From IMG/VR virus record IMGVR_UViG_3300045988_183378: a stretch of DNA of 64,000 nucleotides. One strand, 5' to 3'. Positions 1,268 to 59,249 of this stretch are shown piece by piece. The number at the start of each line of letters is the position of its first letter. Within the stretch, counting starts at the first letter, position 1. Source of the stretch: a virus. The notes beneath the pieces are model-generated. The model was not told the DNA's origin and made no database searches. It saw nothing but the letters and a program-made list of their open reading frames with translations. Both the position numbers and the translations under genes were made by a program.

Positions 1268-1283
1268 AGATATGACAGAAAAA
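1268..1283 (-). promoter_or_regulatory. conserved CTGTCATAT-type promoter motif (minus strand) for relaxase gene
   Basis: + strand reads gatATGACAGaaaaaa = revcomp TTTTTTCTGTCATATC; about 35 bp upstream of start codon at 1234. Confidence 0.55.
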
Positions 1284-1285
1284 AT

Positions 1286-1312
1286 AATAAAGTGTATATA
1301 TACACTTATAAT
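1286..1312. promoter_or_regulatory. candidate oriT / operator palindrome between divergent promoters
   Basis: perfect 14-bp palindrome GTGTATATATACAC immediately upstream of the MobV gene, where MobV oriTs usually lie. Confidence 0.25.
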
Positions 1313-1348
1313 TAATTTATTTTTTTATTAATTTTGCAGTTTGATTTT

Positions 1349-1364
1349 TTTTTCTGTCATACAT
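1349..1364 (+). promoter_or_regulatory. conserved promoter motif TTTTTCTGTCATAc
   Basis: core CTGTCAT 1354-1360; ATG at 1401. Confidence 0.55.
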
Positions 1365-1400
1365 TATTTAGTAATAAAAAATGAAAGGAGCATATATAGT

Positions 1401-2222
1401 ATGAATATGCAGACAATAAGCCTTTTTGAAGAGGGTAATGGAGTACATATTGTTATTCCGAATACAAAAATTGAAGAAATAAAGAATCTAATGGCAGCAT
1501 TATTAATTAATAATGTTGGAGCAAATACAAAGGAGTCAGTTTTAAATGTAGAAGCTCCTGTTGTTGCAAAGGAAATCGCCCCAACACTTGAAGATATTAA
1601 TGCAGAAAAAGAAAAAATCTCGTCTAAAATTGCTGAATCAGAAATAACTGAAATGGTTGAAGAACCAGTTTTAGATGAAAAGGAATTGCCTTGGAATCAG
1701 GATGATACTTCTAATGATTCTGTTGATGACACTATTGCTGACACTATTGTTGATACCATTAATGAACCTATTAATGAAGAAGCAAATAATGATTCACAGG
1801 TATCAGAAAGTACAGCAGTTATTACAGAGGTCCCAGAATATAATGAACAGGTCGGTGATGAATTAGTTTCAAGTGAAAATGAAGATGTATCTGAAGCTGT
1901 TTACAATAATTCAAATACTGATGTATCAGACACAGTAAATGTTGACCCAGTAGAAGAATCATCAGAATCAGAATCTTCAGTTCCAGTAACATCTAATGAT
2001 AGTTCAGATGATTCTGAAATGGTATTAAAGATTTCTGCTAATAAAAATGCAGATGCAGTTATAGGCGGTCTTGAAGCCACATTAATGTACGCTAAGATTA
2101 CTCCAGAAATGAAGCTTAGCAATGATAAGACAGCAGTTATTATTAATGCAGAAAATCTTGATCAGAATACAAAGGACATTATCCTTAGAACGGCAAGAAT
2201 AACCAGAAACTTTGATATGTAA
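1401..2222 (+). CDS. highly acidic low-complexity protein (D/E/S/T/N-rich), unknown function
   Basis: ORF 1341..2222 in track; RBS aaaggag before ATG 1401; acidic repeats DSVDDTIADTIVDT; internal antisense ORFs 1675..1866, 1901..2122 are spurious. Confidence 0.5.
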   Translation: MNMQTISLFEEGNGVHIVIPNTKIEEIKNLMAALLINNVGANTKESVLNVEAPVVAKEIAPTLEDINAEKEKISSKIAESEITEMVEEPVLDEKELPWNQDDTSNDSVDDTIADTIVDTINEPINEEANNDSQVSESTAVITEVPEYNEQVGDELVSSENEDVSEAVYNNSNTDVSDTVNVDPVEESSESESSVPVTSNDSSDDSEMVLKISANKNADAVIGGLEATLMYAKITPEMKLSNDKTAVIINAENLDQNTKDIILRTARITRNFDM

Positions 2223-2244
2223 AATGAAAAGGAGAAAGTATATA

Positions 2245-2415
2245 TGAGTACAAGTGAGTATGTCGATATGTTGCTTAAAGGAAGAAAACAAATGATTTCA
2301 TATTTAGAATATCTGGAAACGCTTTCCATTTTCGATTTAGCGAAGGAATTGGAAGACAATAATATTAGAATCAATATTAACGATTCTCATATAACAGGCT
2401 GTATAACAGCTTAAG
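2245..2415 (+). CDS. small hypothetical protein (56 aa)
   Basis: RBS aaaggagaaagtatatATG; MSTSEYVDMLLKGRKQ...; followed by terminator 2421-2452. Confidence 0.3.
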
Positions 2416-2420
2416 AAAAA

Positions 2421-2452
2421 AAGGTTGGGCAATAAAGCTCAACCTTTTTTAT
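2421..2452. terminator. rho-independent terminator (bidirectional)
   Basis: aaggttgggcaataaagctcaacctttttt hairpin + T tract. Confidence 0.6.
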
Positions 2453-3393: not shown

Positions 3394-3448
3394 TTATCGC
3401 AATTAAGCAAAAAACTCCATCCAACAATAGTCGGTTGTGAGTAGTTCA
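3394..3448 (+). repeat. 57-bp hairpin repeat element, copy 1
   Basis: TTATCGCAATTAAGCAAAAAACTCCATCCaACAATAGTCGGTTGTGAGTAGTTCA; followed by terminator. Confidence 0.7.
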
Positions 3449-3976: not shown

Positions 3977-3992
3977 TTTTTCTGACATATAT
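3977..3992 (+). promoter_or_regulatory. conserved promoter motif variant TTTTTCTGaCATAT
   Basis: core CTGACAT 3982-3988; ATG 4027. Confidence 0.45.
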
Positions 3993-5733: not shown

Positions 5734-5748
5734 AATTCTGTCATATTA
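5733..5748 (+). promoter_or_regulatory. conserved promoter motif (drives short noncoding unit)
   Basis: core CTGTCAT 5738-5744; no ORF before terminator-like structure at 5795-5848. Confidence 0.45.
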
Positions 5749-5749
5749 T

Positions 5750-5851: not shown

Positions 5852-5867
5852 ATTATCTGTCATATAT
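5852..5867 (+). promoter_or_regulatory. conserved promoter motif
   Basis: core CTGTCAT 5857-5863; ATG 5905. Confidence 0.55.
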
Positions 5868-7258: not shown

Positions 7259-8392
7259 ATGAAAACAATAGAAAAAATTAAAATACAAGATAATACAATA
7301 GATCATACAGAAAAACAAACCAGTTTATACGCATATTTGTATAATAAATTTCAAAATAAAATAATGGCTATTAACCTTCTTATAATAATCACAATATTTG
7401 TTTTTGAATTATTATTTATACCAATACATATAATAATAGAAAAACAAACAATAAATATATTATCTTATATTATATTGAATGTATTTACACCTACTACATC
7501 TAATTTAATAATATGGTTTACCGGTAGACAAATTATAAGAAAATATCAAGATAATATTAAACCAGAAATATATGAAGCCATGCCTTTGTATATTTTAACT
7601 TTAATTATAGTGGTTTCAATTATCATTCATTATAATTATCCGGTATTATATACATTAATAGCCTGCCCAATTTTTATGTGTATTGTATATGGTAGTAACA
7701 AGGTTAATTGGCAATTATTTTTGATAAGTCAATTTGAAATTATTACAATTTCATTATCATCAATCTCTGAATTAAATAAGTTACCATCAAATTATTTAAT
7801 ATATATGTTTTTATCATGTATCATAACAATATTTGCATATATTTATTCGAGACTTGTTATTAAATATGAGAAAGAAAAAGAACTTAAACTGGTTTTATCT
7901 GAAAATAGAAATGCACAATTACTAAAAGAAATTTCACAAGATGGATTAACTCGATTAGATAATTATATGTCTCTTTTTAATACAACAAAGAAATGGATAT
8001 CATATAAGAAAAAACTTTATTTTTGTATAATAGATATAGATGATTTTAAATCAGTTAACGATACATATGGACATGAATTTGGAAATACTGTTTTAATTAA
8101 TTTAGCTAAGGAACTTCAAAATATTAACCAATCAAATATTTTTGTCGCCAGATATGGAGGCGAAGAATTCGGAATATTATTTGCAGATTATGAATATACT
8201 GAGGCATATAATATAATTAACGATATCAGAATTAAATTCAACAATATTAAATATGAGAATATTCCGCAGCAATTTACTTTCTCTGGAGGAATAACAGAAT
8301 ATAAGAAAAATAATACCGTTCACGATTTATTTGATGCAGCAGATAAAAATTTGTATAAAGCTAAAAGAACAGGCAAAAATAAAATTATGTAA
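7259..8392 (+). CDS. membrane-anchored GGDEF-domain diguanylate cyclase
   Basis: 6 N-terminal TM helices; DGLTRLDN, IDIDDFKSVNDTYGHEFGN, RYGGEEFGILF (GGEEF active site), DAADKNLYKAKRTGKN; no own promoter motif or clear RBS so probably co-transcribed with HD-GYP gene. Confidence 0.8.
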   Translation: MKTIEKIKIQDNTIDHTEKQTSLYAYLYNKFQNKIMAINLLIIITIFVFELLFIPIHIIIEKQTINILSYIILNVFTPTTSNLIIWFTGRQIIRKYQDNIKPEIYEAMPLYILTLIIVVSIIIHYNYPVLYTLIACPIFMCIVYGSNKVNWQLFLISQFEIITISLSSISELNKLPSNYLIYMFLSCIITIFAYIYSRLVIKYEKEKELKLVLSENRNAQLLKEISQDGLTRLDNYMSLFNTTKKWISYKKKLYFCIIDIDDFKSVNDTYGHEFGNTVLINLAKELQNINQSNIFVARYGGEEFGILFADYEYTEAYNIINDIRIKFNNIKYENIPQQFTFSGGITEYKKNNTVHDLFDAADKNLYKAKRTGKNKIM

Positions 8393-8405: not shown

Positions 8406-8421
8406 AAAATCTGTCATATAA
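8406..8421 (+). promoter_or_regulatory. conserved promoter motif (drives short noncoding unit)
   Basis: core CTGTCAT 8411-8417; next terminator at about 8591-8618; no credible ORF (track ORF 8331..8543 overlaps gene end and is likely spurious). Confidence 0.45.
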
Positions 8422-8623: not shown

Positions 8624-8639
8624 ATTCTCTGTCATATTT
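8624..8639 (+). promoter_or_regulatory. conserved promoter motif
   Basis: core CTGTCAT 8629-8635; ATG 8671. Confidence 0.55.
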
Positions 8640-11022: not shown

Positions 11023-11038
11023 TTTTTCTGTCATATAT
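11023..11038 (+). promoter_or_regulatory. conserved promoter motif
   Basis: core CTGTCAT 11028-11034; ATG 11090. Confidence 0.55.
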
Positions 11039-12185: not shown

Positions 12186-12201
12186 TTTAACTGTCATATA
12201 T
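12186..12201 (+). promoter_or_regulatory. conserved promoter motif
   Basis: core CTGTCAT 12191-12197; ATG 12244. Confidence 0.55.
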
Positions 12202-12924: not shown

Positions 12925-12940
12925 TATTTCTGTCATTCAA
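12925..12940 (+). promoter_or_regulatory. conserved promoter motif variant (CTGTCATtc)
   Basis: core 12930-12936; ATG 12974. Confidence 0.45.
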
Positions 12941-14164: not shown

Positions 14165-14179
14165 TGTTCTGTCATATAT
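14164..14179 (+). promoter_or_regulatory. conserved promoter motif
   Basis: core CTGTCAT 14169-14175; ATG 14240. Confidence 0.55.
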
Positions 14180-16260: not shown

Positions 16261-16276
16261 TTTCTCTGTCATATAT
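16261..16276 (+). promoter_or_regulatory. conserved promoter motif
   Basis: core CTGTCAT 16266-16272; ATG 16308. Confidence 0.55.
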
Positions 16277-17051: not shown

Positions 17052-17084
17052 GCTTCTCTTTTTTTATGTAAGAAAAATCCACTA

Positions 17085-17100
17085 TAAATCTGTCATATTT
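17085..17100 (+). promoter_or_regulatory. conserved promoter motif
   Basis: core CTGTCAT 17090-17096; repeat element then ATG 17204. Confidence 0.5.
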
Positions 17101-17114: not shown

Positions 17115-17171
17115 TTATTGAAAAATAGTAAGAAAACTCCATCTGACAATAGTCGGTTGTGAGTAGTTCAT
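17115..17171 (+). repeat. 57-bp hairpin repeat element, copy 2 (in 5' leader of helicase gene)
   Basis: ...AGTAAGAAAACTCCATCtGACAATAGTCGGTTGTGAGTAGTTCAT. Confidence 0.7.
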
Positions 17172-17203: not shown

Positions 17204-19131
17204 ATGATTGATTATAAAGCTGTTTTAAATGAGCAGCAATATGAAGCTGCTACAACAATTGATGGGCCATTACTTATTATTGCAGGAGCAGGTACAGGTA
17301 AAACAGCAACATTAATACATAGAGTTGCATATATGATAGAAAATGGAATTCCACCTCAGAGTATTCTGCTTTTAACATTCACTAATAAGGCAGCTAATGA
17401 AATGAGTGAAAGAGCTGCACAAATATTAGATGAAAGATGCAATAAAATTACTGCATGTACATATCATTCTTTTTGTGCCAAAATGTTAAGGATATATGGG
17501 GTTTTAGTTGGGCTAAGAAAAAACTTTACTATACTTTCTGAGAGCGATGTTGTAAATACAATTAAACTTCTTATAGCTGAAAATCCAGAAAAATATAAAA
17601 TAAAAAGCGGCTTCTCTGTATCTGAAATCGCCAAAATATTTAGCATGTCAATTAATCAAGATTTACCATTAGAAACAGTTATTGGGCTTAAAGATAGTAA
17701 CTTGGCATTTTTATCATATATATATATACTGAGCTGTTTGAAAAATACAAAAATTATAAAAAGGAAAATAATCTGGTAGATTATGATGATTTGTTAATAT
17801 ACTTTAACGAATTATTAGATAATAAAGCTGTCAGAAATCAAATTTCAAGCAGTTATAAATATATTATGGTAGATGAATATCAAGATACCAATAATCTGCA
17901 GGAAAGAATTATATTTAAAATGGCTCAGAAATATGAGAATCTAGCAGTTGTAGGAGATGATTATCAAAGTATTTATGCTTTCAGAGGAAGTAATGTGTCT
18001 AACTTTATTAATTTCCCTAAAAAGCATAAAAATTGCAAAGTAATAAAACTTGAAAAGAATTATCGTTCCACTACAGAAATACTTAATTTAGCAAATTCAG
18101 TTATGAACCGGTATGCTAATTTTGGATATCCTAAGAATATGACAAGTAATAATAAACAAGGAACTATGCCTGAAGTCATAAGCCTTCAAAATCAGGCAGA
18201 AGAGGCAACCTGCATTTTAAATAGAATAATTAAGCTGCATAATAAAAATGTCCCATATAAGGATATAGCAGTGCTAGAGAAGTATTCCAGAGATTCAGCT
18301 ATATTGGAAACATTGTTAATGAATAATAATATTCCGTACAAAAAAGTTGGAGGACCTAAATTTTTTGAAAGAGAAGCTGTCCAGGATATCTTAGCCTATT
18401 TAAGAGTTATCGCTAATCCAATTGACACATTAGCGTGGTTTAGAATATTGCAATTAATATATGGAATTGGTGATACATATGCAAGAAATATTGTAGAACA
18501 TGTAACAGAAAAAGATTTCTTGCTGCATGAATATCCAACAAAAAAATTTCATCAAGACATGGAAAAATTGCATGATACAATTTTGAATTTTAGAATCAAG
18601 TATTATAGGAACCAGTTAAGTATCCCTGATCTTGTGCTAAAAATAAATGAATATTATATTGAACAAAGAAAAGAATTATTGGAAAATGCTAAATTAAATG
18701 AAGAGCAAAAAATAAATGAACAGGATAAATTAGATGATGATAAAAATATTTTAAAACAGTTATATGAATTATGTACAGTGTTTAATAATCACAAATCTTT
18801 AAACGCTTTTCTTGATAATTTAACTTTAGGGATGGATAACAAAGATGAAGAAGAGGGCTTGGTTATTTCAACAGTACATTCAGCAAAAGGTTTGGAATGG
18901 GAATATGTATTTGTACTTGATTGTGTTACAGGAGTTTACCCAGGATTTAATGCTATGAGCATGGCTGAAGAAGAAAGACAGGAAAATCTAAGAGTATTCT
19001 ATGTTGCTATTACAAGAGCAAAAAAACAAATGTACTTATGTGTCCCAGAAATATATCATGAACGTAAAGTGTATCTTACCCCATATTTAAAACATTTAAA
19101 TAATCATATGTCATTTTCGTATAATTACTGA
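17204..19131 (+). CDS. UvrD/PcrA-like SF1 helicase, reading frame broken within an (AT)6 tract at 17716-17728
   Basis: track ORFs 17204..17779 (GAGTGKTATL Walker A, LTFTNKAANEM) and 17791..19131 (VDYDDLL, MVDEYQDTN, VVGDDYQSIYAFRG, STVHSAKGLEW, FYVAITRAKK); frame ≡1 already open from ~17692 reads ...LFEKYKNYKKENNLVDYDDLL; removing one AT unit restores a single ORF. Confidence 0.7.
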
Positions 19132-19145: not shown

Positions 19146-19176
19146 AATAGTGCCATTTTTGGCACTATTTTTTTGT
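19146..19176 (+). terminator. rho-independent terminator
   Basis: aatagtgccatttttggcactattttttt. Confidence 0.6.
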
Positions 19177-19193
19177 GTAAGAAAAAAAATTTT

Positions 19194-19209
19194 TTTGTCT
19201 GTCATAAAT
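19194..19209 (+). promoter_or_regulatory. conserved promoter motif (CTGTCATAa)
   Basis: core 19199-19205; ATG 19242. Confidence 0.5.
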
Positions 19210-19241
19210 ATATATATAAGATTTTCATAGCGAGGTTATTT

Positions 19242-40698: not shown

Positions 40699-40716
40699 TG
40701 TAAAAAAATGAGTAAT

Positions 40717-42145: not shown

Positions 42146-42161
42146 TTTTTCTGTCATATGT
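42146..42161 (+). promoter_or_regulatory. conserved promoter motif
   Basis: core 42151-42157; ATG 42200. Confidence 0.55.
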
Positions 42162-43330: not shown

Positions 43331-43346
43331 TTTTTCTGTCATATTT
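43331..43346 (+). promoter_or_regulatory. conserved promoter motif
   Basis: core 43336-43342; ATG 43382. Confidence 0.55.
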
Positions 43347-43381: not shown

Positions 43382-44533
43382 ATGAGAGAAAACAAAATTT
43401 TAGAAAATGTAACAGTATTAAACAAGGTTGACAACAGACAGTATTTAATTACATCTGTTACCGATGGCGTAGGAACGGCTTGTCTTTTAGAAAATGGTGA
43501 AGTAAACGAGGATATATCTGTTATGATATCATCATCTAACGCAATTGCATTCAGGCTTATCAGCAATCCTAATATTCCAGATATTCCAGATGGATATTCA
43601 GTAGAAGACGGAATTTTACTTAAGGATGGTGTTGCTGCTACACAGCAGGGTTCACTGGTAATTAAGAGTATCGTTACATCTGTTCCAGGTAAGCTTTTAT
43701 TATCTGTATTACCTAGAGAAAACACAACAGAACATGATGATTATATTGATTTATTTGCTTATAAGCCGGATGAGGATAAGTTTAAGAAACTTATTCCAGT
43801 TTCAATTCCAATGCCGGAAGTTATAGGTGTATGTGACAAATATGTGATACTAAAGACTTCCTATACACACTTTGAAACAAAGAAGGATTTTAATGGAAAG
43901 GATATTTTCGCTGAATATTTTGATAATGCTGAAATTATCGTTTATGATGGTGCAAAGAATTATATTTCAAGTTATTTAATGCTTGACGCACCAATAAATA
44001 ATGTCATTACTGTAAGAAATTCAATGAATGTACCTACATGGGTCATTGAATATACAGAGCAGGTATGTGATAATAATTATTATAATCCTGATTGTGATTG
44101 TGGTTATGACTGCGAAAATGATTGTGGAGATTATGATGAATGCAATAATTGTGATTATCATTTAGATACAATTACTAATACTAAGGAATTAATCGAAATG
44201 GATCATATTAAAGCAGAAATGATTGCTCTTAATGGTGGTACATTAATGAGGCTCAATAGTATTAATATCCCTTCACATATTAAATCTGTTTCAATTGGTT
44301 GGAATAGTGCTGATTTTATCAGACTTGAAGACAGAATTATGATTGGAGAGTATGTTGATAAAATCATTACTGATTCAAAGATAATGTCTGCAGTTGAAGG
44401 ATATGATTGGATTGTCGATACAAGTAAGGAAGATAATGTAACAAGAATTGCTCTTGCAAACGACAATATGGAAATCAAGTATATTGTTATTACTGAAACA
44501 TCAGATAGAGGAGACGTTGTTAAGGTAGAATAA
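43382..44533 (+). CDS. hypothetical protein, paralog B with Cys/Asp-rich insertion
   Basis: about 50% identical ends to 42200 gene; insert CDNNYYNPDCDCGYDCENDCGDYDECNNCDYH. Confidence 0.55.
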   Translation: MRENKILENVTVLNKVDNRQYLITSVTDGVGTACLLENGEVNEDISVMISSSNAIAFRLISNPNIPDIPDGYSVEDGILLKDGVAATQQGSLVIKSIVTSVPGKLLLSVLPRENTTEHDDYIDLFAYKPDEDKFKKLIPVSIPMPEVIGVCDKYVILKTSYTHFETKKDFNGKDIFAEYFDNAEIIVYDGAKNYISSYLMLDAPINNVITVRNSMNVPTWVIEYTEQVCDNNYYNPDCDCGYDCENDCGDYDECNNCDYHLDTITNTKELIEMDHIKAEMIALNGGTLMRLNSINIPSHIKSVSIGWNSADFIRLEDRIMIGEYVDKIITDSKIMSAVEGYDWIVDTSKEDNVTRIALANDNMEIKYIVITETSDRGDVVKVE

Positions 44534-44566: not shown

Positions 44567-44602
44567 TACACCAGTTGAGATTAGTCAACTGGTGTATTTT
44601 TT
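44567..44602 (+). terminator. rho-independent terminator
   Basis: tacaccagttgagattagtcaactggtgtatttttt. Confidence 0.6.
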
Positions 44603-44613
44603 CTGTCATGTAT
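44598..44613 (+). promoter_or_regulatory. conserved promoter motif (CTGTCATgT)
   Basis: core 44603-44609; ATG 44645. Confidence 0.5.
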
Positions 44614-44644: not shown

Positions 44645-46438
44645 ATGTCAATGTTTGAACATGTAAAAATTGGAGAATTAACAAAAAAGGTTATTGAGTC
44701 AGGAGTTACAGTGTGTGAACATAACCATCCAGGAGGCTCTTTGTTTGATGCCGTAGATGAACCTAAAAGTTATTTAGATGCTGCATTTAATGCAGGATAT
44801 ACTAAATTTGCTGTTACGGACCATGCATCATTTTCAGCAATGCAAACATGTATTGATTACGCTAAGAAAATAAGTACTGAGGAACATCCATTTAATATCA
44901 TTTATGGCGTAGAGGCTTATATTGAAGTGCCACCATTTAAGATAAATGAACAGATTGGCCATATTATTATGTTAGCCACTTCAGAAAGAGGCAAGCATAT
45001 TATTGATAAGTTAAATTCTAAGGCTTCTGAAAAAAGAATGGGAAAGCCTGTTATTACAATATCAGATTTAAAGAAATATAACTTTAACGGTGATATAATA
45101 GCAACTTCAGCTTGCGTTTCGGGTGCACCAGCTCTGCAATTATTATCAGATGATGTTTTGGATAAAATGATTAACAGAGAAAGAAAAGCACAGCAGCATA
45201 CTACTGAAAAAGACGAGCTAGTTATACGTGATTGTATAAGTCCTGATGATAAAGAATATCTTTCAGCTAAAGATGAATTTGAAAGGGTATCGGCAGATTT
45301 AGATGAATTGATTAATATTCGTGATTCCAAGGAACTTAAATCAGAAAGAACACAGATTTCAAGAAAATTAAGAGATGCAAGAAAGTGTTTAAATGATGAT
45401 GATCCAGAGCTTATTAAACTGATTAACGAATATGAGGAGATAAATAATAAAATTCTGGAAGCTAAAGATAAAATTCCTAATGTCAGAAAATTAGTTAATG
45501 CTAAGAAAGCCGAGTTAAAGGATATAAGTCTTAAAGTAGAGGAATATATTAATCATGAAAATAAGATACAGCATTATGAATCATTAAAGAAAAGCCCAAT
45601 AGAATTAATGTCTGAAGCAGAAAAGACAATGCTTTTTTATCAGGAAATTTTTGGAGCAGGTAATTATTACATTGAAGTTCAGAATCATGGGCTTGAAATG
45701 GAAAGCAGAACATATCCTGTGTTAGCTCAGTTAGCAAGGAAGCATAATATCCCATTAGTTGCTGCTAATGATGCACATATGGCAGATAATTCTGATAGAA
45801 GTATTGATATGCGTAATGTAGCTAAATTTTTAAGATTTATTAAGATAAGTGAGTCGGAATCAGATAAAGAGTTATATGTAAAAACACCTTACGAACTTGC
45901 TCAGGCCTTATCAGCTATATTAACAGATGATCAGGTTGCAGAAGCACTCAATAACTTAAATGTAATTGGAAAAAGATGTGCTTATATTCCAGAAAAATCT
46001 AATCATTATCCAGTATTTGATAAGAACAAGGACTCAAACGAATTATTAAGATCTGAAGCAATTAAGGGAATTAATTGGAGATATCCTAACGGAAAAGGAT
46101 GGGATGAAGAACATCAGAAACGAATGGAATACGAACTTAATATTATCATTCAGATGGGCTTTGCCGATTATCATTTAATTGTAAAGGACTTCCTGGAATA
46201 TGGAAGAATTTGTGGATTAGTACCTATGGATAAACTATCAGAAGTACCTTTAACAATTGAAGGTGCAAAAGAGTATGTTAAGGCTCACAATTATAATACC
46301 GGAATTGGAATAGGCATTGGAAGAGGTTCAGGTGCCGGTTCATTGGTTACATATTTACTTGGTATTACCGGAATTGATCCATTTAAGTATAATCTGATTT
46401 TTGAACGATTCTTAAATCCAGAAAGAGTAAGTATGCCT
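44645..46438 (+). CDS. dnaE: DNA polymerase III alpha (DnaE-type) N-terminal part, exon 1 (PHP domain through ...[10 protein letters not shown])
   Basis: PHP motifs [15 protein letters not shown]; YYIEVQNHG; [10 protein letters not shown]; [42 protein letters not shown]; about 190-aa coiled-coil insertion in PHP region. Confidence 0.8.
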
Positions 46439-47378
46439 AAATATATTGGGCGTTCAGCGTGGACTCTAACTCAGAGGTGTGCTTAATATTTTATTATTAA
46501 GTGCTAACGGTAGAAGTTGAATAAGACTGCTATATAAAGTGTCACAACAGGATATATAGCTTAACCCATAGACGAAGCAGCTTCGTAAGAGAACCTACGG
46601 TCCTAATATTTTTATATAAAAGATATTGAAGGATAGCAGGCGATACCGTGCTAAGATTATAAATAATATTATATAAATAAGGAGGTGTATATTTATGATA
46701 GATTATATCAATTTTACATCATTCCTTGAAAAAGGTGAAAAAATAGTAGAAATTAAAAATCACCACGAATATTACATAACTTCATATGGAAAGATTTTTA
46801 GTATAAAACAAGGGAAAATTCGACAACTTAAACCTTTTTTAGATAGTAAAAAGAATTACAGGATGATAAGATTAGATAATAAAAAATATTTATTGCATCG
46901 ATTAGTTGCGATGAATTTTATTCCTAATCCTTATAATCTACCAGAAGTTAATCATAAAGACAAAAATAAACAAAATTGTAAGGTGAATAATTTAGAATGG
47001 TGTACTAGAAAAGACAATTTATATGATAGTTATAAAACTATGTCTCCTGTAAGAAATTATAAGTGTTGTAAATTATATAAAGGAGATATATTAATTGATA
47101 GATTTGAAAGCATATTAGCAGCAGCTCGATATGCTAAAGAAAAATATAACGCAAGTTATTCCTCAATGCATAAATATTTAAAATGGAATGACTTAAAAAT
47201 TGTTCGTATATAATATTATTTATTTTAAAGTGTAACGACTATCCTTTTTAAGGAGTACAACTGAGAATGGTTACAGTTGGAAGTGCGTTGAAATATAATA
47301 TTAACAATATTATATTGAGATATAGTCTAATCCCACTTATACAAGTGTTAAAGTACTACGAAAGTAGGGGTATATTTG
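46439..47378 (+). ncRNA. group I intron (940 nt) carrying an HNH homing endonuclease ORF
   Basis: exon1 ends ...AUGCCU with IGS-like GGGC at intron 5' end (U.G P1 pair); intron ends ...UUUG before GAUAUCGAU; joining gives ERVSMP|DIDSD contiguous with DnaE consensus; GC-richer structured segments. Confidence 0.65.
46695..47213 (+). CDS. intron-encoded HNH homing endonuclease
   Basis: HRLVAMNFIP...EVNHKDKNKQNCKVNNLEWCTRKDN (HNH with conserved N and H); own RBS aaggaggtgtatatttATG. Confidence 0.75.
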   Translation: MIDYINFTSFLEKGEKIVEIKNHHEYYITSYGKIFSIKQGKIRQLKPFLDSKKNYRMIRLDNKKYLLHRLVAMNFIPNPYNLPEVNHKDKNKQNCKVNNLEWCTRKDNLYDSYKTMSPVRNYKCCKLYKGDILIDRFESILAAARYAKEKYNASYSSMHKYLKWNDLKIVRI

Positions 47379-48134
47379 GATATCGATAGCGATCTTGCTC
47401 TTGGAGTAAGAGAAAAGACAATTGAGTATGTAAGAGCTAAATATGGTAGTGAAGCTGTTGTTGGAATTATTACAGAATCAAGACAGCAGGCTAAAGGTGC
47501 TATCAGAGATGCTGCAAGATATTATGGAAAGAAAGCTTATGATGATGAAAAGAAATTCTTATCTTTAGGAGATCAGATTCGTAAGAAAGTGCCTGCTAAA
47601 GCAACTAATTTTGAAGATATTGTTGGCATGAAAGATACTAATAAGGTTGATGAATTAGGCATTAATATTCAGGACAGCGTTTCTTTGTTAGATTTCTTAA
47701 AGGATGAATATAATAGTAATCCAGATGCTATTTCTATTCTTAATATTGCAGCTCATTGTGAAGGTATGCTTACGACATACGGACAACATGCCGCAGGTGT
47801 TATTATTTATGATAGTAATGATGTTACTGATTATATTCCTATTAGAGATGGAAAAAAGGGAATTAAAACTACAGAAATGGATATGATTCAGTGCGAAGCT
47901 AATGGATTATTAAAAATGGATTTTCTTGGATTAAAAACTCTTACAATTATTACTGACACACTCAGAATGATTCAGAGAGATACAGGAGAAGTAATTGATG
48001 TAATGAATATTCCATTAGAGGGTCCTAAAGCTGATAAGGTATACAAAGAAGTATATGCAAAAGGAAGAACTAAGAATGTTTTCCAGTTTGAGTCAGCCGG
48101 TATGAGGAATAACCTTAAGAAGTTATGCTCATAG
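47379..48134 (+). CDS. dnaE: DnaE N-terminal part, exon 2 (DIDSD...FQFESAGM...)
   Basis: DIDSDLALGVREKTIEYVRAKYG..VVGIITE...AKGAIRDAARYYG matches DnaE PDIDIDF..R.EVI.YV..KYG; ends LKKLCS* with TAG. Confidence 0.75.
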   Translation, partial: DIDSDLALGVREKTIEYVRAKYGSEAVVGIITESRQQAKGAIRDAARYYGKKAYDDEKKFLSLGDQIRKKVPAKATNFEDIVGMKDTNKVDELGINIQDSVSLLDFLKDEYNSNPDAISILNIAAHCEGMLTTYGQHAAGVIIYDSNDVTDYIPIRDGKKGIKTTEMDMIQCEANGLLKMDFLGLKTLTIITDTLRMIQRDTGEVIDVMNIPLEGPKADKVYKEVYAKGRTKNVFQFESAGMRNNLKKLCS

Positions 48135-49145: not shown

Positions 49146-49202
49146 TTATCGCAATTAAGCAAAAAAACCCCAACCGACAATAGCCGGTTGTGGGTAGTTC
49201 AA
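49146..49202 (+). repeat. 57-bp hairpin repeat element, copy 6
   Basis: TTATCGCAATTAAGCAAAAAAACCCCAaCCGACAATAGcCGGTTGTGgGTAGTTCAAT; compensatory base changes preserve extended stem. Confidence 0.7.
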
Positions 49203-50788: not shown

Positions 50789-50845
50789 TTATCGAAGAAT
50801 TGCAAGAAAACTCCATCCGACTAATGTCGGTTGTGAGTAGTTCAT
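50789..50845 (+). repeat. 57-bp hairpin repeat element, copy 7
   Basis: TTATCGAAGAATTGCAAGAAAACTCCATCCGACTAATGTCGGTTGTGAGTAGTTCAT. Confidence 0.75.
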
Positions 50846-51417: not shown

Positions 51418-51433
51418 TTTTTCTGTCATAAAT
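51418..51433 (+). promoter_or_regulatory. conserved promoter motif
   Basis: core 51423-51429; ATG 51463. Confidence 0.55.
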
Positions 51434-52829: not shown

Positions 52830-52845
52830 TTTTTCTGTCATTTAT
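52830..52845 (+). promoter_or_regulatory. conserved promoter motif (CTGTCATtt)
   Basis: core 52835-52841; ATG 52881. Confidence 0.5.
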
Positions 52846-53804: not shown

Positions 53805-53820
53805 ATTTTCTGTCATAAAT
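53805..53820 (+). promoter_or_regulatory. conserved promoter motif (CTGTCATAa)
   Basis: core 53810-53816; ATG 53854. Confidence 0.5.
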
Positions 53821-53853: not shown

Positions 53854-55539
53854 ATGAATAAAACAGGTATTGAAGATTTAATAGCAATGAATGCTTTATA
53901 TCGTCCTGGTCCTGAAAAGTTTATACCTGATTTCATAGAAGGTAAAAAGGATGCATCTAAGATTAAATATTTATGTCCTCAATTAGAGCCAATTTTGTCA
54001 ACTACTTATGGACAGATAGTTTATCAGGAACAGGTAATGCAGATTGTTCGTGATTTAGCAGGATATACATGGGGGCGTTCTGATTTAGTCCGTAGAGCTA
54101 TGTCAAAAAAACATCAGGATGAGATTGATGCTGAAAGACACACTTTTGTATATGGTAATGCTGATACTAAAAAAGAAAATGAAGCATTAGTACCAGGTTG
54201 TATTGCAAATGGAATTCCAGAAGTTATAGCTCATAAGATTTGGGATGCAATGGTTGACTTTGCTAAGTATGCGTTTAATAAGTCACATGCCACTGCTTAT
54301 GCTGTTACATCATATTGGACAGCTTTTCTTAAGTATTATTATCCGGCTTATTATCTTACAAATGTAATAAATCATACTGATAAGATTGATGAAGTCGCTG
54401 ATGATATTAGTGATGCCCTTGATTTTGGAGTAAAGGTATTGCCTCCGGACATTAATGCTTCAAATTTACATTGTGATGTTGTAGATGGGAACATTTTGTA
54501 TGGTCTGAGTAATATTAAGAATGTTGGAGCAGAAGCAGCTAAAATTATTGAAGATAGAAATGTTAATGGAGAATATTCTGATATTAAGGATTTTATCAAA
54601 CGAACAAATATTAATGCAGAAGCATTAAGTTCCTTAATTAAAGCAGGTGCTTTCGATTGCCTTGGTTATACAAGAACAATGATATCATTAGATATGATTT
54701 GTATGAAAGAAATTCAGGATACAATTAAGAAAATCAGAGAGAAGAGTAAGTTTATTGAAAACGCAAGTAAAGTTATTGAATTTGTGGAAGATTATATTGA
54801 TCTTGATGAGTTTAAGGAAAGAATTTCAGAAGAAAATATTTCCTTTCAAGTTACTTCAAAAAAGATGCCAACTAAGGATTCCATAATTAAACGTATCAAT
54901 TCAGCTAAGACAGTTATAGAAAGCTTAGAAGATGATCTTGAAAATATAGATATTGATTATGTAGAAGATGATTTAGGTCAGATTCTAAATGATGAAAAAG
55001 AAGTGTTAGGCGTTTATATTACAGGGCATCCAATTGATGAGTATAATATTTATACAGATCCCATTTCTGATATTTCAACAGAAGTTAACGATGTATCTGG
55101 TATAATTAAAAATCTTGTTGTAAGAAAGGATAGAAATGGATACGAATGGGTAACTTTTGAGGTAGAAGATAAAACAGGTTCTATTAATGGTGTATGTTTT
55201 TCTAAGGATTATGCGAATATTAGAGACTTACTTGTTAATGATGCTAAATTATGTTTATCAGGAAAAATTCAAGTAGATGATTTTAGATCTTCAGATGACG
55301 AAACTGTATATCAGATTATTGTTAAGTCTGTTAAACCTTTAAAGAAAAATAAGTCTTCATACAGATTTATATGTACTGTTTCTGAAGTAAATGATATTCT
55401 TGATTCTATTAATGAATATCTGGTAGATAATGACGGGGATTATTTATATTGGCTTGATTCAACAACCGGAATTGAACATTTATGCAAGAAATTCATTAAC
55501 CCTGATATGTCAGCACCTTCAATAGTCCGTAAATGCTAA
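53854..55539 (+). CDS. dnaE: DnaE C-terminal part as separate gene (fingers/thumb, OB-fold region)
   Basis: IAMNALYRPGPEKFIPDFIEGKK, LEPILSTTYGQIVYQEQVMQIVRDLAGYTWGRSDLVRRAMSKK, FAKYAFNKSHATAYAVTSY colinear with E. coli DnaE; own terminator, promoter motif, RBS and ATG. Confidence 0.8.
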   Translation: MNKTGIEDLIAMNALYRPGPEKFIPDFIEGKKDASKIKYLCPQLEPILSTTYGQIVYQEQVMQIVRDLAGYTWGRSDLVRRAMSKKHQDEIDAERHTFVYGNADTKKENEALVPGCIANGIPEVIAHKIWDAMVDFAKYAFNKSHATAYAVTSYWTAFLKYYYPAYYLTNVINHTDKIDEVADDISDALDFGVKVLPPDINASNLHCDVVDGNILYGLSNIKNVGAEAAKIIEDRNVNGEYSDIKDFIKRTNINAEALSSLIKAGAFDCLGYTRTMISLDMICMKEIQDTIKKIREKSKFIENASKVIEFVEDYIDLDEFKERISEENISFQVTSKKMPTKDSIIKRINSAKTVIESLEDDLENIDIDYVEDDLGQILNDEKEVLGVYITGHPIDEYNIYTDPISDISTEVNDVSGIIKNLVVRKDRNGYEWVTFEVEDKTGSINGVCFSKDYANIRDLLVNDAKLCLSGKIQVDDFRSSDDETVYQIIVKSVKPLKKNKSSYRFICTVSEVNDILDSINEYLVDNDGDYLYWLDSTTGIEHLCKKFINPDMSAPSIVRKC

Positions 55540-55560: not shown

Positions 55561-55591
55561 TACCGCTGTTTATTGCAGCGGTATTTTTTTT
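55561..55591 (+). terminator. rho-independent terminator
   Basis: taccgctgtttattgcagcggtatttttttt. Confidence 0.6.
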
Positions 55592-55610
55592 ATGTAAAGA
55601 TTTTTAAAAT

Positions 55611-55652: not shown

Positions 55653-56564
55653 ATGATACTTAGTAACAATAACAGTAATATTAAGGAATTAAGAAATAAA
55701 AAAAATAAGCATGATTTAAATTCTTATATGGATTTTATGGCAAAAAACAAAATGAAAAGTAATTCTTTTTTTTCAAAATCAAAACAGTATATAAAGATTT
55801 TTATTCCATTTATTATTTCTGTTTTTATAATTTTATTTTCAATGTTTATTGCAACATTTATAGACAGTCTATTAAATATGTATATGAATGATGCAGGAGG
55901 AATTTCAACTAAAATAGATTATGAAGGATTTCGATTAATTTACACAATATCAACATATACATTAATGTTTGTTATGTGCATTATTTGTATAAAAAGCTCA
56001 TTTTACAATTATAAAAAAGATTTGTTTATGAAAAATAAATTAGTAGTAAATTGGAATTTTGCATTTTGTTTCATATTAATTTCTGTAATATTGCAGCTTA
56101 TTTCAGGAATTCAAATGCATTTTGTAAATGTATCAGATATTGATTATGGAAGTTTAGGAATAAAAACAATTATATCTACAATAATAGCAACTTTTGTGGC
56201 ACCTATTATTGAGGAATTGACTTTTAGATATATAATTTATGGCTATGCATATAAAGCAAGCAACAATAAATTATGTGCAAATATAATCCAAGCATTTTTA
56301 TTTGGAATAATTCATTTTAATTTTATTTTATTCCCTATATATGCTTTTGGCGGATATTTGTTAGGTGCTGTAAGAGATAAATATGGTATTAAACTTAGCA
56401 GCTTATATCATATTCTAATAAACTGTGTGGCATTAATACCATTTACGTTTTTTATAACAAATATATATTTACAGGTATGCATTTTAATAGTCTGCATAAT
56501 GAGTTTAATTTATTTTGTAATTAAGTGTTTTGAAAATATCAATATAGAAATTAAGGAGCAATAA
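55653..56564 (+). CDS. CPBP-family (CAAX/Abi-like) intramembrane protease, first gene of sigma-factor operon
   Basis: multi-TM; APIIEELTFRY (EExxxR) and FGIIHFN (FxxxH). Confidence 0.6.
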   Translation: MILSNNNSNIKELRNKKNKHDLNSYMDFMAKNKMKSNSFFSKSKQYIKIFIPFIISVFIILFSMFIATFIDSLLNMYMNDAGGISTKIDYEGFRLIYTISTYTLMFVMCIICIKSSFYNYKKDLFMKNKLVVNWNFAFCFILISVILQLISGIQMHFVNVSDIDYGSLGIKTIISTIIATFVAPIIEELTFRYIIYGYAYKASNNKLCANIIQAFLFGIIHFNFILFPIYAFGGYLLGAVRDKYGIKLSSLYHILINCVALIPFTFFITNIYLQVCILIVCIMSLIYFVIKCFENINIEIKEQ

Positions 56565-56567
56565 TTT

Positions 56568-56963
56568 ATGAAAACAAATATGAATAATGAATTAAAAAAT
56601 AAGTCTATAAGTGATATCCTTGAAGCTTCTTCAACAGATTTATATGAATGGTATTTAATTAATTTTAAGAAAGAAATTCCTAGATCAGATGAAATAGATT
56701 TATTGGAAATAGGAAATTTATTGAGTGAAGTAGGAAATTATTTTACCTATTTTTCTTCAATGCATTCTATTTTAGATTCAATGGTAAAAGAAATGAAATT
56801 ACACAAAGAGTCTTCAGATAAATGTAAAGAGCTTATGATTAAACGAGATATATTAGGAACCTTTGAAGAGCAATCTAAATTTACATATAATGCAATTAGT
56901 AGAATATGTACAATGAAAATAGAAGCAAATAATGAATTAAAAATGCTAGGACATCAATGTTAA
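56568..56963 (+). CDS. hypothetical protein between protease and sigma factor
   Basis: ORF track; 4-bp spacing to both neighbours. Confidence 0.4.
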   Translation: MKTNMNNELKNKSISDILEASSTDLYEWYLINFKKEIPRSDEIDLLEIGNLLSEVGNYFTYFSSMHSILDSMVKEMKLHKESSDKCKELMIKRDILGTFEEQSKFTYNAISRICTMKIEANNELKMLGHQC

Positions 56964-56975
56964 GAGGAGATTTTT

Positions 56976-58004
56976 ATGGCAGATAAGAATTTATTATTAA
57001 ATAAAAAAAACAATAAAGATGAATATGTTGATGAATTATTTGATACAAATAAACCAATAGAAAACATAAATATTTTATCAGAGGATAATTATACCGATAT
57101 TTTAAATGATAAAGAGATTTTAAATGAAAAAGAGAAACTATTATTAGAAAATAATATAACTTATTATATTAAATCATTCGCTGATTATCCGGTTTTATCC
57201 AAAGATGAAACTCTTAAATTATTTGAAGAGATAAAAAAACATCCTAAAAAGAAAAAAGAAATAACCGAAAAATTGATTTTATCTAATATGCGTTTAGTCA
57301 TCAGTATTGCTAAAGCTGTTACAGCTAAAACGCAAAGTTTTGAAATGGATGATTTATGTCAGGCCGGTATTTTCGGGTTATACAGAGCTATACAAATGTT
57401 TGATTATAAATTAGGATATGCATTTTCAACTTATGCAACTCATTGGATTAGACAGAGTATATATAGAGAATTAGCCAATTATGATTTATTAGTTAGATTC
57501 CCTGTACATGTAAGAGAGCAGGATTCTTTTGTTAAGACTACATTTGTGGATTTAACTAATAAACTTCAAAGAAAACCTACAATTGATGAATTATATGATG
57601 TAGTAAAACAAAGATATCCTCTTTTAACTAAAGAAATGCTTGTACATATTCAGAGCTTTAATGAATTGGTTTCATTAGATGCACCTATTCAAAGTGATGA
57701 AGGCCATGACGATTCGTGTTTGGCTGATTATATAGAAGCTCCTGAACCTAAAGTTGAAGATACGATTATTCAAAAAGAAATGAATGAACTGCTTTGGAAA
57801 GAAGTTGAAGATTGTCTCACTCCTAGAGAATTATATGTAATTAAGAGTAGAATGGGATATGGTTCAAAGGTTAAAACTTTAAAAGATATAGGTACTGAAT
57901 GGAATGTTTCCAGAGAACGAATCAGACAAATTGAATCAAAAGCAATAAAAAAGATTAGAGTTCGTTTCAGACGGAAAGGATATAGTATACAATCTTTTAT
58001 GTAA
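56976..58004 (+). CDS. sigma-70-family RNA polymerase sigma factor (regions 1.2-4 present)
   Basis: region 2 LILSNMRLVISIAK...DDLCQAGIFGLYRAIQMFD...FSTYATHWIRQSIYREL; region 4 LTPRELYVIKSRMGYG..KTLKDIGTEWNVSRERIRQIESKAIKKIR. Confidence 0.8.
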   Translation: MADKNLLLNKKNNKDEYVDELFDTNKPIENINILSEDNYTDILNDKEILNEKEKLLLENNITYYIKSFADYPVLSKDETLKLFEEIKKHPKKKKEITEKLILSNMRLVISIAKAVTAKTQSFEMDDLCQAGIFGLYRAIQMFDYKLGYAFSTYATHWIRQSIYRELANYDLLVRFPVHVREQDSFVKTTFVDLTNKLQRKPTIDELYDVVKQRYPLLTKEMLVHIQSFNELVSLDAPIQSDEGHDDSCLADYIEAPEPKVEDTIIQKEMNELLWKEVEDCLTPRELYVIKSRMGYGSKVKTLKDIGTEWNVSRERIRQIESKAIKKIRVRFRRKGYSIQSFM

Positions 58005-58018
58005 TATATAAATAAAAT

Positions 58019-58049
58019 GCAGTTATCAATAGGTAGCTGTATTTTTTTA
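58019..58049 (+). terminator. rho-independent terminator
   Basis: gcagttatcaataggtagctgtattttttt. Confidence 0.5.
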
Positions 58050-58832
58050 TGATTACACTTCCTTTAAGTGTAATATGTCATACACCTTCTTCAAAGCCCT
58101 TCTATTATTTTCTTTTTCATTGACACGCTTTTTATTATTAAAATATAAATATTAGAGCCTTATATAATACATTTGAGTATTCCTTAATAGCGTTTTAAGA
58201 CTTAATATAATAACCGCCAGAACATTATTAAGGATTAAAAGCGTATAACTATTATTGTTATATCCTTATACAATATCATTTATCAGCTTAATACATTTTG
58301 TGTTTATTTCCCTGGCAATTCCTTATCTGTCTCTAGCAAGCACTCCATTTATCCCAATTAATGCCTTTAATACACTAATAAATAATATAATTCCCTCATA
58401 TATAATATATGATAATTACAAAATTATGATTACTAGATTCCTGTAAATCTATTCTTCGCCCTGTAAATGCCTTAATAAGCCCAATAATCCCATTTCTGTC
58501 TCAATAGATGCATTCATATACACTAATTCTTTCTTATTTGTTCTTAGATCTATTTCCTTTACTCTATCATTCCTATATGTGTTTCCAGTAATTCCATTAA
58601 TTAACTTTAGTAAATAATAATTATATCCCATTAATCAGTTATATTTATTTTTCTCACTGATCATACAGTCTATTGTACCCAATTAATCCATATATAATTG
58701 CTAATATTACCAATTATATGTTATCAAATTAACATTTTTTATCTCTTAAATCAGCATATGATAACTACATCATGGTATTATTCTGACACATATAAGGCAT
58801 TTTATTGGCTATGCAACGGATAATACATTACT

Positions 58833-59094
58833 ACATATTGTTATCATTATTACATTTATGTATCAAATATTTAGCTATATATTGTTAATTTTATTGCACA
58901 AGTTCTTCTATTCTATAACATAATGATGTTAATTTTAATGTATATTAAACCATATTTTATATCTATATATTGTTATTATTTTTGTATCTTAGCTATATTT
59001 TGATAAGTCTCAAATAACTATATATTGTTAATAAAGTTAACATATTAAACTAATATACAACAATAAACGTACAATATATTGTTATTATTTTTTA
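58833..59094 (+). repeat. array of 5 iteron-like direct repeats (C)TATATATTGTTA(A/T)T in 1.28-kb noncoding region
   Basis: copies at about 58833-58849, 58875-58890, 58963-58980, 59018-59034, 59073-59094. Confidence 0.5.
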
Positions 59095-59233
59095 CAAGCA
59101 AAGGCATGGCATACCCAATAAAGTGCTTAGAAGAACACAAAAACGGGATATTTTAATAAATAAAAGGCATTTACATTTAGTTGCTGTCTTATTTTAACAC
59201 ACATCAATTATTTTATGTAAAATAATAATTCAT

Positions 59234-59249
59234 TTTTTCTGTCATATTA
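59234..59249 (+). promoter_or_regulatory. conserved promoter motif (CTGTCATATTAAAAATATA)
   Basis: core 59239-59245; ATG 59283. Confidence 0.55.

Follow-up and report, generated by a model that had tools for sequence, protein, structure and literature searches.

A recurrent motif upstream of genes in a large gut element

We analysed the 64,000-nt stretch IMGVR_UViG_3300045988_183378 (the whole of which we call the window), which is 28% GC, about 82% coding and carries almost all of its genes on one strand. These genes encode a MobV/Mob_Pre relaxase (29-1234), a PARP-like protein, HD-GYP and GGDEF proteins, PBP1A, RecJ, RecA, two UvrD-like helicases, a primase-like zinc-finger protein, a flotillin-like protein, a DNA methylase, TnpB, a guanylate kinase, a split DnaE, a 5'-3' exonuclease and a sigma factor. 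Together with a ~55-kb extension along a 103-kb IMG/VR contig, ~120 kb of DNA from this element was inspected altogether. Our subject is a short motif that recurs ahead of its genes, and the factor that might read it.

The motif is strongly over-represented in the window. The 16-mer TTTTTCTGTCATATWT has 33 matches at two or fewer mismatches against 1.16 expected, a number reached in none of 100 shuffles, and the core 8-mer CTGTCATA matches exactly at 35 places (2.25 expected), of which 30 are on the + strand. Motif density is the same in the extension (13 + strand copies of CTGTCATA in 20 kb, against 0.63 expected). Using the 10-mer TCTGTCATAT as a guide, with up to 1-2 mismatches, we found 38 sites on the + strand and two on the - strand (1270-1279 and 2558-2567), which upholds the count in a preliminary description of the window (38 and one) and adds one - strand copy. 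That description had also proposed looking at motif frequency inside coding DNA: 33 of 36 + strand matches at one or no mismatch are intergenic, although most of the window is coding. The three within called coding sequences lie at 37185, 42577 and 56082. The first, within the last 30 nt of its gene and 44 nt ahead of the next start, was counted as a site; the other two were treated as chance matches and left out of the list, in which all copies bar one are intergenic. The motif is confirmed as a real feature of this DNA. Its 40 copies are as follows (the upstream box and D1 are further conserved elements described below).

1270-1279, - strand: motif TCTGTCATAT, exact; MobV relaxase ATG 45 nt downstream
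1353-1362, + strand: motif TCTGTCATAC; start codon 48 nt downstream
2558-2567, - strand: motif, exact, divergent partner of 2582; ribosome-binding site (RBS), then ATG-TAG with no open reading frame (ORF)
2582-2591, + strand: motif, exact; gene 2674 is 92 nt downstream
3981-3990, + strand: motif TCTGACATAT; 46 nt to a 66-aa ORF leading the PARP-like gene
5737-5746, + strand: motif, exact, in tandem with 5856; hairpin and T-tract 11 nt upstream
5856-5865, + strand: motif of the HD-GYP gene; start 49 nt downstream
8410-8419, + strand: motif with upstream box, exact; leader of 261 nt
8628-8637, + strand: motif of the PBP1A gene; start 43 nt downstream, terminator 11 nt upstream
11027-11036, + strand: motif; 63 nt to the ORF at 11090
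12190-12199, + strand: motif ACTGTCATAT; 54 nt to start, terminator 28 nt upstream
12929-12938, + strand: degenerate motif TCTGTCATTC; 45 nt to a 71-aa ORF
14168-14177, + strand: motif; 72 nt to start, terminator 9 nt upstream
16265-16274, + strand: motif; 43 nt to start, terminator 5 nt upstream
17089-17098, + strand: motif with upstream box, UvrD-like gene; 115-nt leader holding a D1 hairpin element
19198-19207, + strand: motif TCTGTCATAA with upstream box; 44 nt to start of a 588-aa ORF
21371-21380, + strand: motif; 46 nt to start
21863-21872, + strand: degenerate motif TCTGTCATTA, RecJ gene; 46 nt to start
23746-23755, + strand: motif GCTGTCATAT; 45 nt to start
24325-24334, + strand: motif ACTGTCATAT with upstream box, RecA gene; 48 nt to start
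25491-25500, + strand: motif, exact; 462-nt ORF-poor leader, then an 844-aa gene
28543-28552, + strand: motif; 47 nt to start, terminator 10 nt upstream
29018-29027, + strand: motif TATGTCATAT; D1 element downstream
29219-29228, + strand: motif; 44 nt to start
30536-30545, + strand: motif TCAGTCATAT; 45 nt to start
31085-31094, + strand: motif with upstream box, flotillin-like gene; 139-nt leader with D1 element
32982-32991, + strand: motif of a 973-aa UvrD-like gene; 42 nt to start
36014-36023, + strand: motif TCCGTCATAT; 48 nt to start, terminator 9 nt upstream
37185-37194, + strand: motif in the 3' end of gene 36349-37215, methylase gene next; 44 nt to start at 37229
39826-39835, + strand: motif; 44 nt to a 49-aa ORF, then D1 and the guanylate kinase gene
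40721-40730, + strand: motif with upstream box; 56 nt to a 37-aa ORF
42150-42159, + strand: motif; 50 nt to start
43335-43344, + strand: motif; 47 nt to start
44602-44611, + strand: motif TCTGTCATGT, DnaE N-terminal part; 43 nt to start, kept at the orthologous site of L123
48192-48201, + strand: motif; 47 nt to a 78-aa ORF, terminator 4 nt upstream
51422-51431, + strand: motif TCTGTCATAA, 5'-3' exonuclease gene; 41 nt to start
52834-52843, + strand: motif TCTGTCATTT; 47 nt to start
53809-53818, + strand: motif TCTGTCATAA, DnaE C-terminal part; 45 nt to start, kept at the orthologous site of L123
55615-55624, + strand: motif with upstream box, head of the sigma operon; 38 nt to start at 55653, kept in L123
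59238-59247, + strand: motif with upstream box, DUF5688 gene; 45 nt to start

Position and orientation of the motif

In 28 of the 40 sites, a start codon (ATG with an RBS before it) follows 38-50 nt past the motif's first base (median 46). The preliminary description had given a spacing of 40-50 bp ahead of nearly every gene. The relaxase, the one long gene on the - strand, has its copy at 45 nt from the ATG, and the further - strand copy lies at 2558-2567. Because the motif is co-oriented with genes on both strands, it tracks gene orientation and not the direction of replication.

A hairpin and T-tract end within ~30 nt upstream at ~24 of 38 motif copies; the claim that each motif follows a terminator U-tract therefore holds for about two thirds of them. 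Terminator-like sites, meaning a GC-containing hairpin followed by a T-run, number 14 in the first 20 kb of the window against 4.3 expected. As these terminators end only 4-30 nt upstream of the motif, they leave no space for any other promoter. About 65 ORFs lie on the + strand, 35 of which have a motif copy directly in front; most of the rest start <40 nt behind the previous gene and are therefore operon-internal. The preliminary description had placed the motif-less genes in two clusters. The TnpB insertion and the stretch at 60258-63664 do lack the motif, and most other genes without it are simply internal to operons. According to that description, the right end may mark a different temporal class.

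The motif resembles an extended -10 promoter element

Alignment of the 40 sites gives a T-rich run followed by T C T G T C A T A T, then W and T. A second signal appears at +16/+17 from the first T, where T is found in 32/40 sites and a purine (A/G) in 36/40. The same step is present in 43 non-redundant sites outside the window (pyrimidine in 39/43, purine in 40/43), drawn from further parts of the same element and from four other lineages; as these were chosen by exact CTGTCATA, they are no independent test of the C at -12. Over the 83 sites, this pyrimidine-purine step lies 7 nt downstream of the hexamer and resembles a bacterial transcription start site, from which we infer the putative start.

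Numbered accordingly, the motif reads T-17 C-16 T-15 G-14 T-13 C-12 A-11 T-10 A-9 T-8 W-7. A TG at -15/-14 stands one base ahead of the hexamer (T in 38/40 sites, G in 40/40). The hexamer deviates from TATAAT, with C at -12 and A at -11 in 40/40 and, at -7, A in 23 sites and T in 13. A C at -16 is found in 39/40. The same alignment contains no conserved -35 hexamer, no ATA or AC -35 motif of the SigE/SigK type at the proper distance and, the motif aside, no further conserved element between terminator and RBS.

Host-type promoters show no enrichment. Pairs of TTGACA and TATAAT in the first 20 kb number 158 against 162 expected, and 6/43 strong matches to them are intergenic, the proportion expected by chance. 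Intergenic DNA of the window holds 27 TGnCATAT against one TGnTATAAT, in agreement with the earlier view that this -10 is not host-like. We also considered the motif as a -35 element, as CTGTCA matches TTGACA at 4/6 positions, and rejected this because the -10 and start site would then fall onto the conserved RBS, AAGGAG. The sigma-54, extracytoplasmic function (ECF) and sporulation sigma consensus sequences were likewise rejected, as none fits. A literature search on the motif string returned nothing relevant to a consensus TnTGTCATAT with C at -12.

Position, orientation, extended -10 anatomy, the start-site-like step and conservation in diverged relatives (below) together support reading the motif as a promoter. 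In silico, its identification as a putative extended -10 promoter with C in place of T at -12 is well supported.

The element-encoded sigma factor and its operon

The window encodes a sigma-70-family protein in an operon headed by the motif copy at 55615:

55653-56564, + strand: CAAX/Rce1-like membrane protease (Pfam PF02517), first gene of the sigma operon; same neighbour in 5/5 lineages
56568-56963, + strand: 131-aa conserved protein directly 5' of sigma; 56-64% identity across lineages
56976-58004, + strand: sigma-70-family factor, RpoD-like, without region 1.1, from domain and profile matches

The sigma ORF had been reported as a complete factor, and it is real: it contains Sigma70_r2 (PF04542, 1.8e-14) and Sigma70_r4 (PF04545, 7.6e-11), and regions 1.2, 2, 3 and 4 can be aligned to RpoD/SigA (RpoD_Cterm over residues 98-334, PRK09210 over residues 29-334; E 3e-43 against SigA chains in the PDB). 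Its identity to clostridial RpoD proteins is ~37%, and at 179 bits it falls short of each of the RpoD equivalog cut-offs (354-572). Region 1.1 is missing, with no match to PF03979 and the N-terminal 60 residues unaligned; host homologues have this domain.

In E. coli numbering, the protein retains Q437, the TG-reading residues H455 and E458, and the -35-reading residues R584, E585, R588 and Q589, and carries the substitutions W433H, A438S and T440Y. Its region 2.4 reads HWIRQSIYRELANY instead of the canonical WWIRQAITRAIADQ, which is present exactly in 83/120 database homologues. In E. coli sigma-70, T440I and Q437H are classical suppressors of a T-to-C change at promoter position -12 (PMC2613000).

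The succession of CAAX-type membrane protease, ~130-aa protein and sigma (55653-58004) is kept in 5/5 lineages. Conservation of the ~130-aa neighbour (56-64%) exceeds that of sigma itself (40-47%), and this protein could be a partner or control module of the sigma factor. On its 3' side, sigma is followed by 1.28 kb (58005-59282) with no ORF of at least 80 aa on either strand and with reversed GC skew. Relatives carry a gene of 324-429 aa there, and the region may be a decayed gene or non-coding. Elsewhere in the window, a 589-aa protein (19239-21008) behind a box-type motif has a weak sigma/HTH-like match (TIGR02937, E 0.002, residues 311-462) and may be a regulator.

Conservation in related lineages

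Relatives were found by word-indexed search and exhaustive profile search, with L227 added by a metagenome scan. Sigma factors 98-100% identical to that of the window occur on human-gut contigs of 88, 95, 103, 137, 203, 322 and 400 kb. More distant sigmas are those of P0003 (51% identical, on Hadza gut contigs of up to 295 kb), P0121 (~44% identical to the window sigma), P0122 (~43%, on a 138-kb contig), L227 (37%) and P0123, which is found on tiny contigs only. Five lineages were compared: the window, P0003, P0121, P0122 and L227. Of the lineages found, IMG/VR contains that of the window only. A genome scan for the sigma returned unrelated RpoD genes only, an IMG/VR scan with the 16-mer motif gave single chance matches and nothing informative, and megablast of 20 kb against phage and plasmid collections gave no match.

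All members with enough flanking DNA share the arrangement of split DnaE, CAAX protease, ~130-aa protein and sigma. In the P0003 lineage, the motif is found at orthologous positions before both DnaE parts and before the CAAX gene; terminator stems and remaining spacers have diverged there, with motif and RBS retained. The motif is also present in the P0121, P0122 and L227 lineages (sigma 37-44% identical), and a copy heads the sigma-containing operon in 5/5 lineages. Its form varies, being TCTGT(C/T)AT(A/T)T in L205, (TC)TGTCATAT in L227 and CTGTCATATT in the P0122 lineage, where it mostly comes with the upstream box. The C at -12 is retained across all lineages compared. Sites of the form TTTTTCTTATATAT were also seen, in L206, L208, L223 and L225 of the P0122 lineage and at L227:~10870.

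Outside these lineages the motif was not found. None of 62 other IMG/VR contigs with a 92-aa protein in common with the element contains it, nor does a 244-kb contig with patches 93-97% identical to the element, where the matches to CTGTCATA are antisense to coding sequence and come without T-run or RBS.

The TG readers H455 and E458 are present in the sigmas of all lineages, and W433, A438 or T440 is changed in 4/5. The residue at T440 is Y in the window sigma, I in P0003, R in P0122 and T in L227.

Which factor might read the motif

We propose that nearly all transcription units of this large AT-rich mobile element would have TTTTT-TCTGTCATAT-W-T as their core promoter, an extended -10 element in which a single base separates T-15 G-14 from the hexamer C-12 A-11 T-10 A-9 T-8 W-7. 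No -35 hexamer would be needed, and transcription would start ~7 nt past the hexamer, giving leaders of 21-33 nt with a strong RBS. An intrinsic terminator just upstream would insulate most units, so that many genes would own a terminator-promoter-RBS cassette. The likeliest reader would be the host core RNA polymerase together with the element's RpoD-like sigma (56976-58004); as the sigma gene itself lies behind one such promoter, this would place both sigma and the whole element under positive feedback. We are highly confident of the narrower statement alone, that the motif is a promoter. For the full statement, in which the element's own sigma reads it, the balance tips modestly in favour.

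The link between sigma and motif, put forward in the preliminary description, is a plausible proposal. Consistent with it, the two occur together in five lineages and nowhere else among the contigs compared, and the sigma operon always lies behind a motif copy. The invariant C-12 and near-invariant C-16, not expected of a host SigA promoter, also speak for the link, as does a region 2.4 altered at the -12-reading position in most lineages, with the textbook T440I in P0003.

Several observations weigh against this assignment. At an unchanged distance from start codons, P0122 has TTTTTCTTATATAT as well, in which -12 is T and the TG is missing. The L227 sigma has a canonical region 2.4 (WWIRQSVTRALMDK, WWIRQ..T, with W433 and T440 intact), and its promoters are still TGTCATAT; the changes at T440 and W433 therefore do not explain the C at -12. 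A residue-to-base code for this position, which we considered, is contradicted by L227: T440Y/I accompanies -12 C in two lineages, T440 accompanies -12 C in L227, and T440R in P0122 accompanies both CATAT and TATAT. Region 4.2 (RERIRQ) is canonical, yet no -35 element is conserved. The residue comparison with SigA that had been suggested is thus equivocal, with region 2.4 altered in four lineages and canonical in the fifth. Co-occurrence of sigma and motif is, moreover, confounded by synteny, because any conserved protein of the element, such as the ~130-aa neighbour, co-occurs equally with the motif. If the motif were read solely by this sigma, some seed would be required to begin sigma expression, for instance weak recognition of the motif by host SigA. 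Finally, the start site is a putative one, read from a sequence signal.

Alternatively, the motif could be a promoter read by the host primary sigma, alone or with an element accessory protein that shifts its specificity, leaving the element sigma to serve elsewhere, for example on a smaller gene set or in replacing a disabled host sigma. The motif has the TG at -15/-14, A-11 and T-10 that SigA requires of an extended -10 promoter, the L227 sigma shows canonical residues to be compatible with the motif, the motif-dependent sigma operon needs a pre-existing reader, and the ~130-aa protein beside sigma could be the accessory factor. SigA prefers T at -12, however, where C is invariant here (with C-16 in 39/40 sites), and an element relying on SigA would not be expected to shun the optimal hexamer to the extent of one intergenic TGnTATAAT against 27 TGnCATAT. 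We regard reading by the host sigma as a minority possibility, to be taken seriously. A further element factor encoded beyond the window, either a sigma-like protein or a dedicated RNA polymerase, appears quite improbable. Such factors are known elsewhere, in T4 gp55/gp33 and in the non-virion polymerases of phiKZ and AR9. The same sigma lies on contigs of 137-400 kb, against ~120 kb of element DNA inspected, the -10-only architecture resembles T4 late promoters, and the 19239-21008 protein offers its weak sigma/HTH-like match; against this, no polymerase subunit or second sigma was found in the ~120 kb, and the motif is in the exact register of a sigma-70 extended -10 element.

Two other explanations seem to us very unlikely. 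One would tie expression of the element to sporulation, with a CATA-type -10 read by host mother-cell SigE/SigK. Clostridial -10 elements of this class such as CATATAAT do resemble CATATWT (PMC3789822), but the ATA or AC -35 motifs are not conserved at the right distance, and the conserved TCTGT upstream part is missing from the SigE/SigK consensus. The other, to which we attach similarly little weight, holds that the motif is no promoter at all, being instead the operator of a global DNA-binding regulator or an RNA-level signal in 5' leaders. The cassette as a whole, leader (cttttatatcaaaattataaaggagg) included, recurs both inside lineages and from one to another, and part of the conservation could therefore be RNA-level or reflect cassette spread. 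Yet the motif lacks symmetry and follows gene orientation on either strand, another promoter could not fit between it and the terminators just upstream, and no further element is conserved between terminator and RBS.

Reading by the element's own sigma remains our preferred proposal. Its boldest extension would be a fully orthogonal system, in which a primary-like sigma without region 1.1 serves a -12C extended -10 promoter poorly read by SigA, under a switch formed by CAAX protease, 130-aa protein and sigma. We consider this rather unlikely. If true, the switch might act, for example, by regulated sigma release, and a single event could switch on >100 kb of individually insulated single-gene cassettes inside a host whose GC content is much higher.

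Upstream box, D1 element and leaders

Eight motif copies (8410, 17089, 19198, 24325, 31085, 40721, 55615 and 59238) carry an upstream box exactly 17 nt before TCTG. It reads TTATGTAA, once TTGTGTAA, and is mostly embedded in T7-ATGTA-A7:

8385-8392, + strand: box TTATGTAA of 8410, exactly 17 nt ahead of TCTG
17064-17071, + strand: box TTATGTAA of 17089, 17 nt ahead of TCTG
19173-19180, + strand: box variant TTGTGTAA of 19198, 17 nt ahead of TCTG
24300-24307, + strand: box TTATGTAA of 24325, 17 nt ahead of the motif
31060-31067, + strand: box TTATGTAA of 31085, 17 nt ahead of TCTG
40696-40703, + strand: box TTATGTAA of 40721, 17 nt ahead of TCTG
55590-55597, + strand: box TTATGTAA of 55615, 17 nt ahead of TCTG
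59213-59220, + strand: box TTATGTAA of 59238, 17 nt ahead of TCTG

Promoters of this class include those of the sigma operon, recA, a UvrD-like gene and the flotillin-like gene. We rejected a -35 role for the box, which lies at about -42 to -35 and, at 22-23 nt from the hexamer, is too distant. An activator or the alpha subunit could bind there.

A second repeat, D1, is a ~60-nt element (TTATCGAAGAATWGCAAGAAAACTCCATCCGACAATAGTCGGTTGTGAGTAGTTCA) with a conserved hairpin, present in eight + strand copies in the window:

3411-3448, 17133-17170, 29077-29114, 31152-31189, 40038-40075, 49164-49201, 50807-50844 and 63765-63802, + strand: D1 cores

Further copies lie outside the window at L135:10390-10450 and L123:~6215. 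D1 is placed in 5' leaders or between cistrons, often 17-35 nt ahead of the starts of motif-less genes, and the copy at 49164 shows a compensatory change from U-A to C-G. It could be a processing, attenuation or translation signal; Rfam searches of the window, of the HNH insertion in dnaE (below) and of the D1 repeat gave no match.

Three other intergenic arrangements stand out. At 2558-2591, two motif copies diverge 14 nt apart, the - strand copy leading to an RBS and an ATG-TAG start-stop without an ORF. The copy at 25491 is associated with a 488-nt ORF-poor leader (25468-25955) ahead of the 844-aa gene; this leader contains three copies of CATCCTACTTTT and, at 25724, the sole intergenic TGnTATAAT of the window. 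The TnpB (IS200/605 OrfB) insertion at 38126-39800 is devoid of motif copies and has a host-like TAGATA-16-TATAAT at 38186.

Nature of the element and its host

The preliminary description implicitly treated the DNA as a phage, writing of infected cells, and this framing is not supported. No capsid, portal, terminase or tail gene is found in the window or its ~55-kb extension, ~120 kb that represents part of the element. In addition to the relaxase, the 203-kb contig encodes a TraG/VirD4-type coupling protein ~2.4 kb to the left of the window; a NERD protein accompanies it, both on this contig and in three similar places. On this side, at ~4.5 kb from the window start, GC content jumps from ~28% to 45-50%, and the motif is absent beyond. 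Past this jump (L246:11207-21206) are VapE-like, primase-like and ABC-transporter genes and GTTGTC repeats, and the junction recurs in four assemblies. The GC junction suggests integration or a mosaic replicon. Because it combines relaxase and coupling protein, lacks virion genes over ~120 kb and shows this GC jump, the element is probably a very large conjugative/integrative element or a mosaic megaplasmid and not a phage. No terminal overlap that would indicate circularity was found in the 95-kb contig. Strong RBSs and the nearest homologues of the sigma factor point to a host among Clostridia-like Firmicutes.

Several genes of the window are interrupted or duplicated. DnaE is encoded in pieces (44645-48134 and 53854-55539), and in 5/5 lineages the C-terminal part, with finger, HhH and OB domains, has a gene to itself, preceded by a motif copy; the parts are 5.7 kb apart in the window and ~0.1-0.8 kb apart in relatives. 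A 940-nt insertion with an HNH gene (46439-47378) interrupts the catalytic PDID|SD motif in frame, and is missing from the 98%-identical contig L122, so it appears intron-like and mobile. A frameshift beside an (AT)n run (near 17725-17790) divides the UvrD-like helicase at 17204-19131, which is either a pseudogene or an assembly error. Genes 42200-43249 and 43382-44533 are tandem paralogs with DNA repeats 78-79% identical and a motif copy each.

Comparison with known systems

That a mobile element can bring its own sigma factor and promoter set is well established in principle, as in SPO1 and T4. What is new here is the consensus TnTGTCATAT with C-12, the sigma lineage, the very regular terminator-promoter-RBS cassettes and the setting in a huge, apparently non-viral gut element. 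Should sigma and motif truly be paired, they would be a natural orthogonal sigma/promoter pair from Firmicute-like gut bacteria and a part for synthetic biology, and ~80 aligned natural promoter variants with five diverged sigmas would be at hand for studying how region 2.4 reads -12. TGTCATAT at ~45 nt before start codons would also be a simple signature by which a family of very large, uncharacterised mobile elements could be recognised and delimited in human-gut metagenomes.

Among known systems, SPO1 gp28 and gp33/34 are phage sigma factors with promoter sets of their own. RpoD-like sigma factors are also found in group 2 jumbo phages (PMC7824862), and a huge phage encodes its own sigma-70 (PMC7162821). 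Shared with such phages are a mobile element encoding a sigma-70-family protein and a genome-wide promoter consensus unlike that of the host. The present sigma, however, is close to primary sigmas (~37% to clostridial RpoD), the element has conjugation and no virion genes, and a single consensus serves nearly all units, with no clear early/middle/late series. In T4 late transcription, gp55 and gp33 act at the -10 promoter TATAAATA, and gp55 is a minimal sigma without region 4. A -10-only promoter before many genes and a small conserved partner protein beside the specificity factor are common to both systems, whereas our sigma has regions 2-4 and there is no sign of sliding-clamp coupling.

Low-GC Firmicutes commonly use extended -10 promoters that have no -35 element, and in C. 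difficile the SigA extended -10 is TGNTATAAT at 245 start sites (PMC7438776). The motif shares with this Firmicute type (TRTGnTATAAT; TGNTATAAT) the TG one base before the hexamer, invariant A-11 and T-10, independence of a -35 element, a start (here putative) ~7 nt downstream and the presence of H455/E458 in sigma. It differs in having C-12 in every copy, C-16 in 39/40 and A or T at -7, and in that its likely reader is an element-encoded sigma and not the host's. The I in P0003 and Y in the window sigma at T440, both with -12 C, recall the Q437H and T440I mutants of E. coli sigma-70 (PMC2613000). The two element sigmas are natural proteins with many other changes, however, and L227 combines T440 with C-12, so the correspondence is not one-to-one. 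SigE and SigK promoters of Bacillus and Clostridium have a -10 that begins CATA, as in CATATAAT (PMC3789822). That beginning is shared with our motif, but these sigmas belong to another group, need an ATA/AC -35 and lack the TCTGT extension. Mimivirus, which infects eukaryotes and has its own polymerase, places its promoter motif AAAATTGA before genes and ends transcripts at hairpins. One short motif ahead of a large share of genes, with hairpins ending transcripts, is what the two have in common, as an analogy only.

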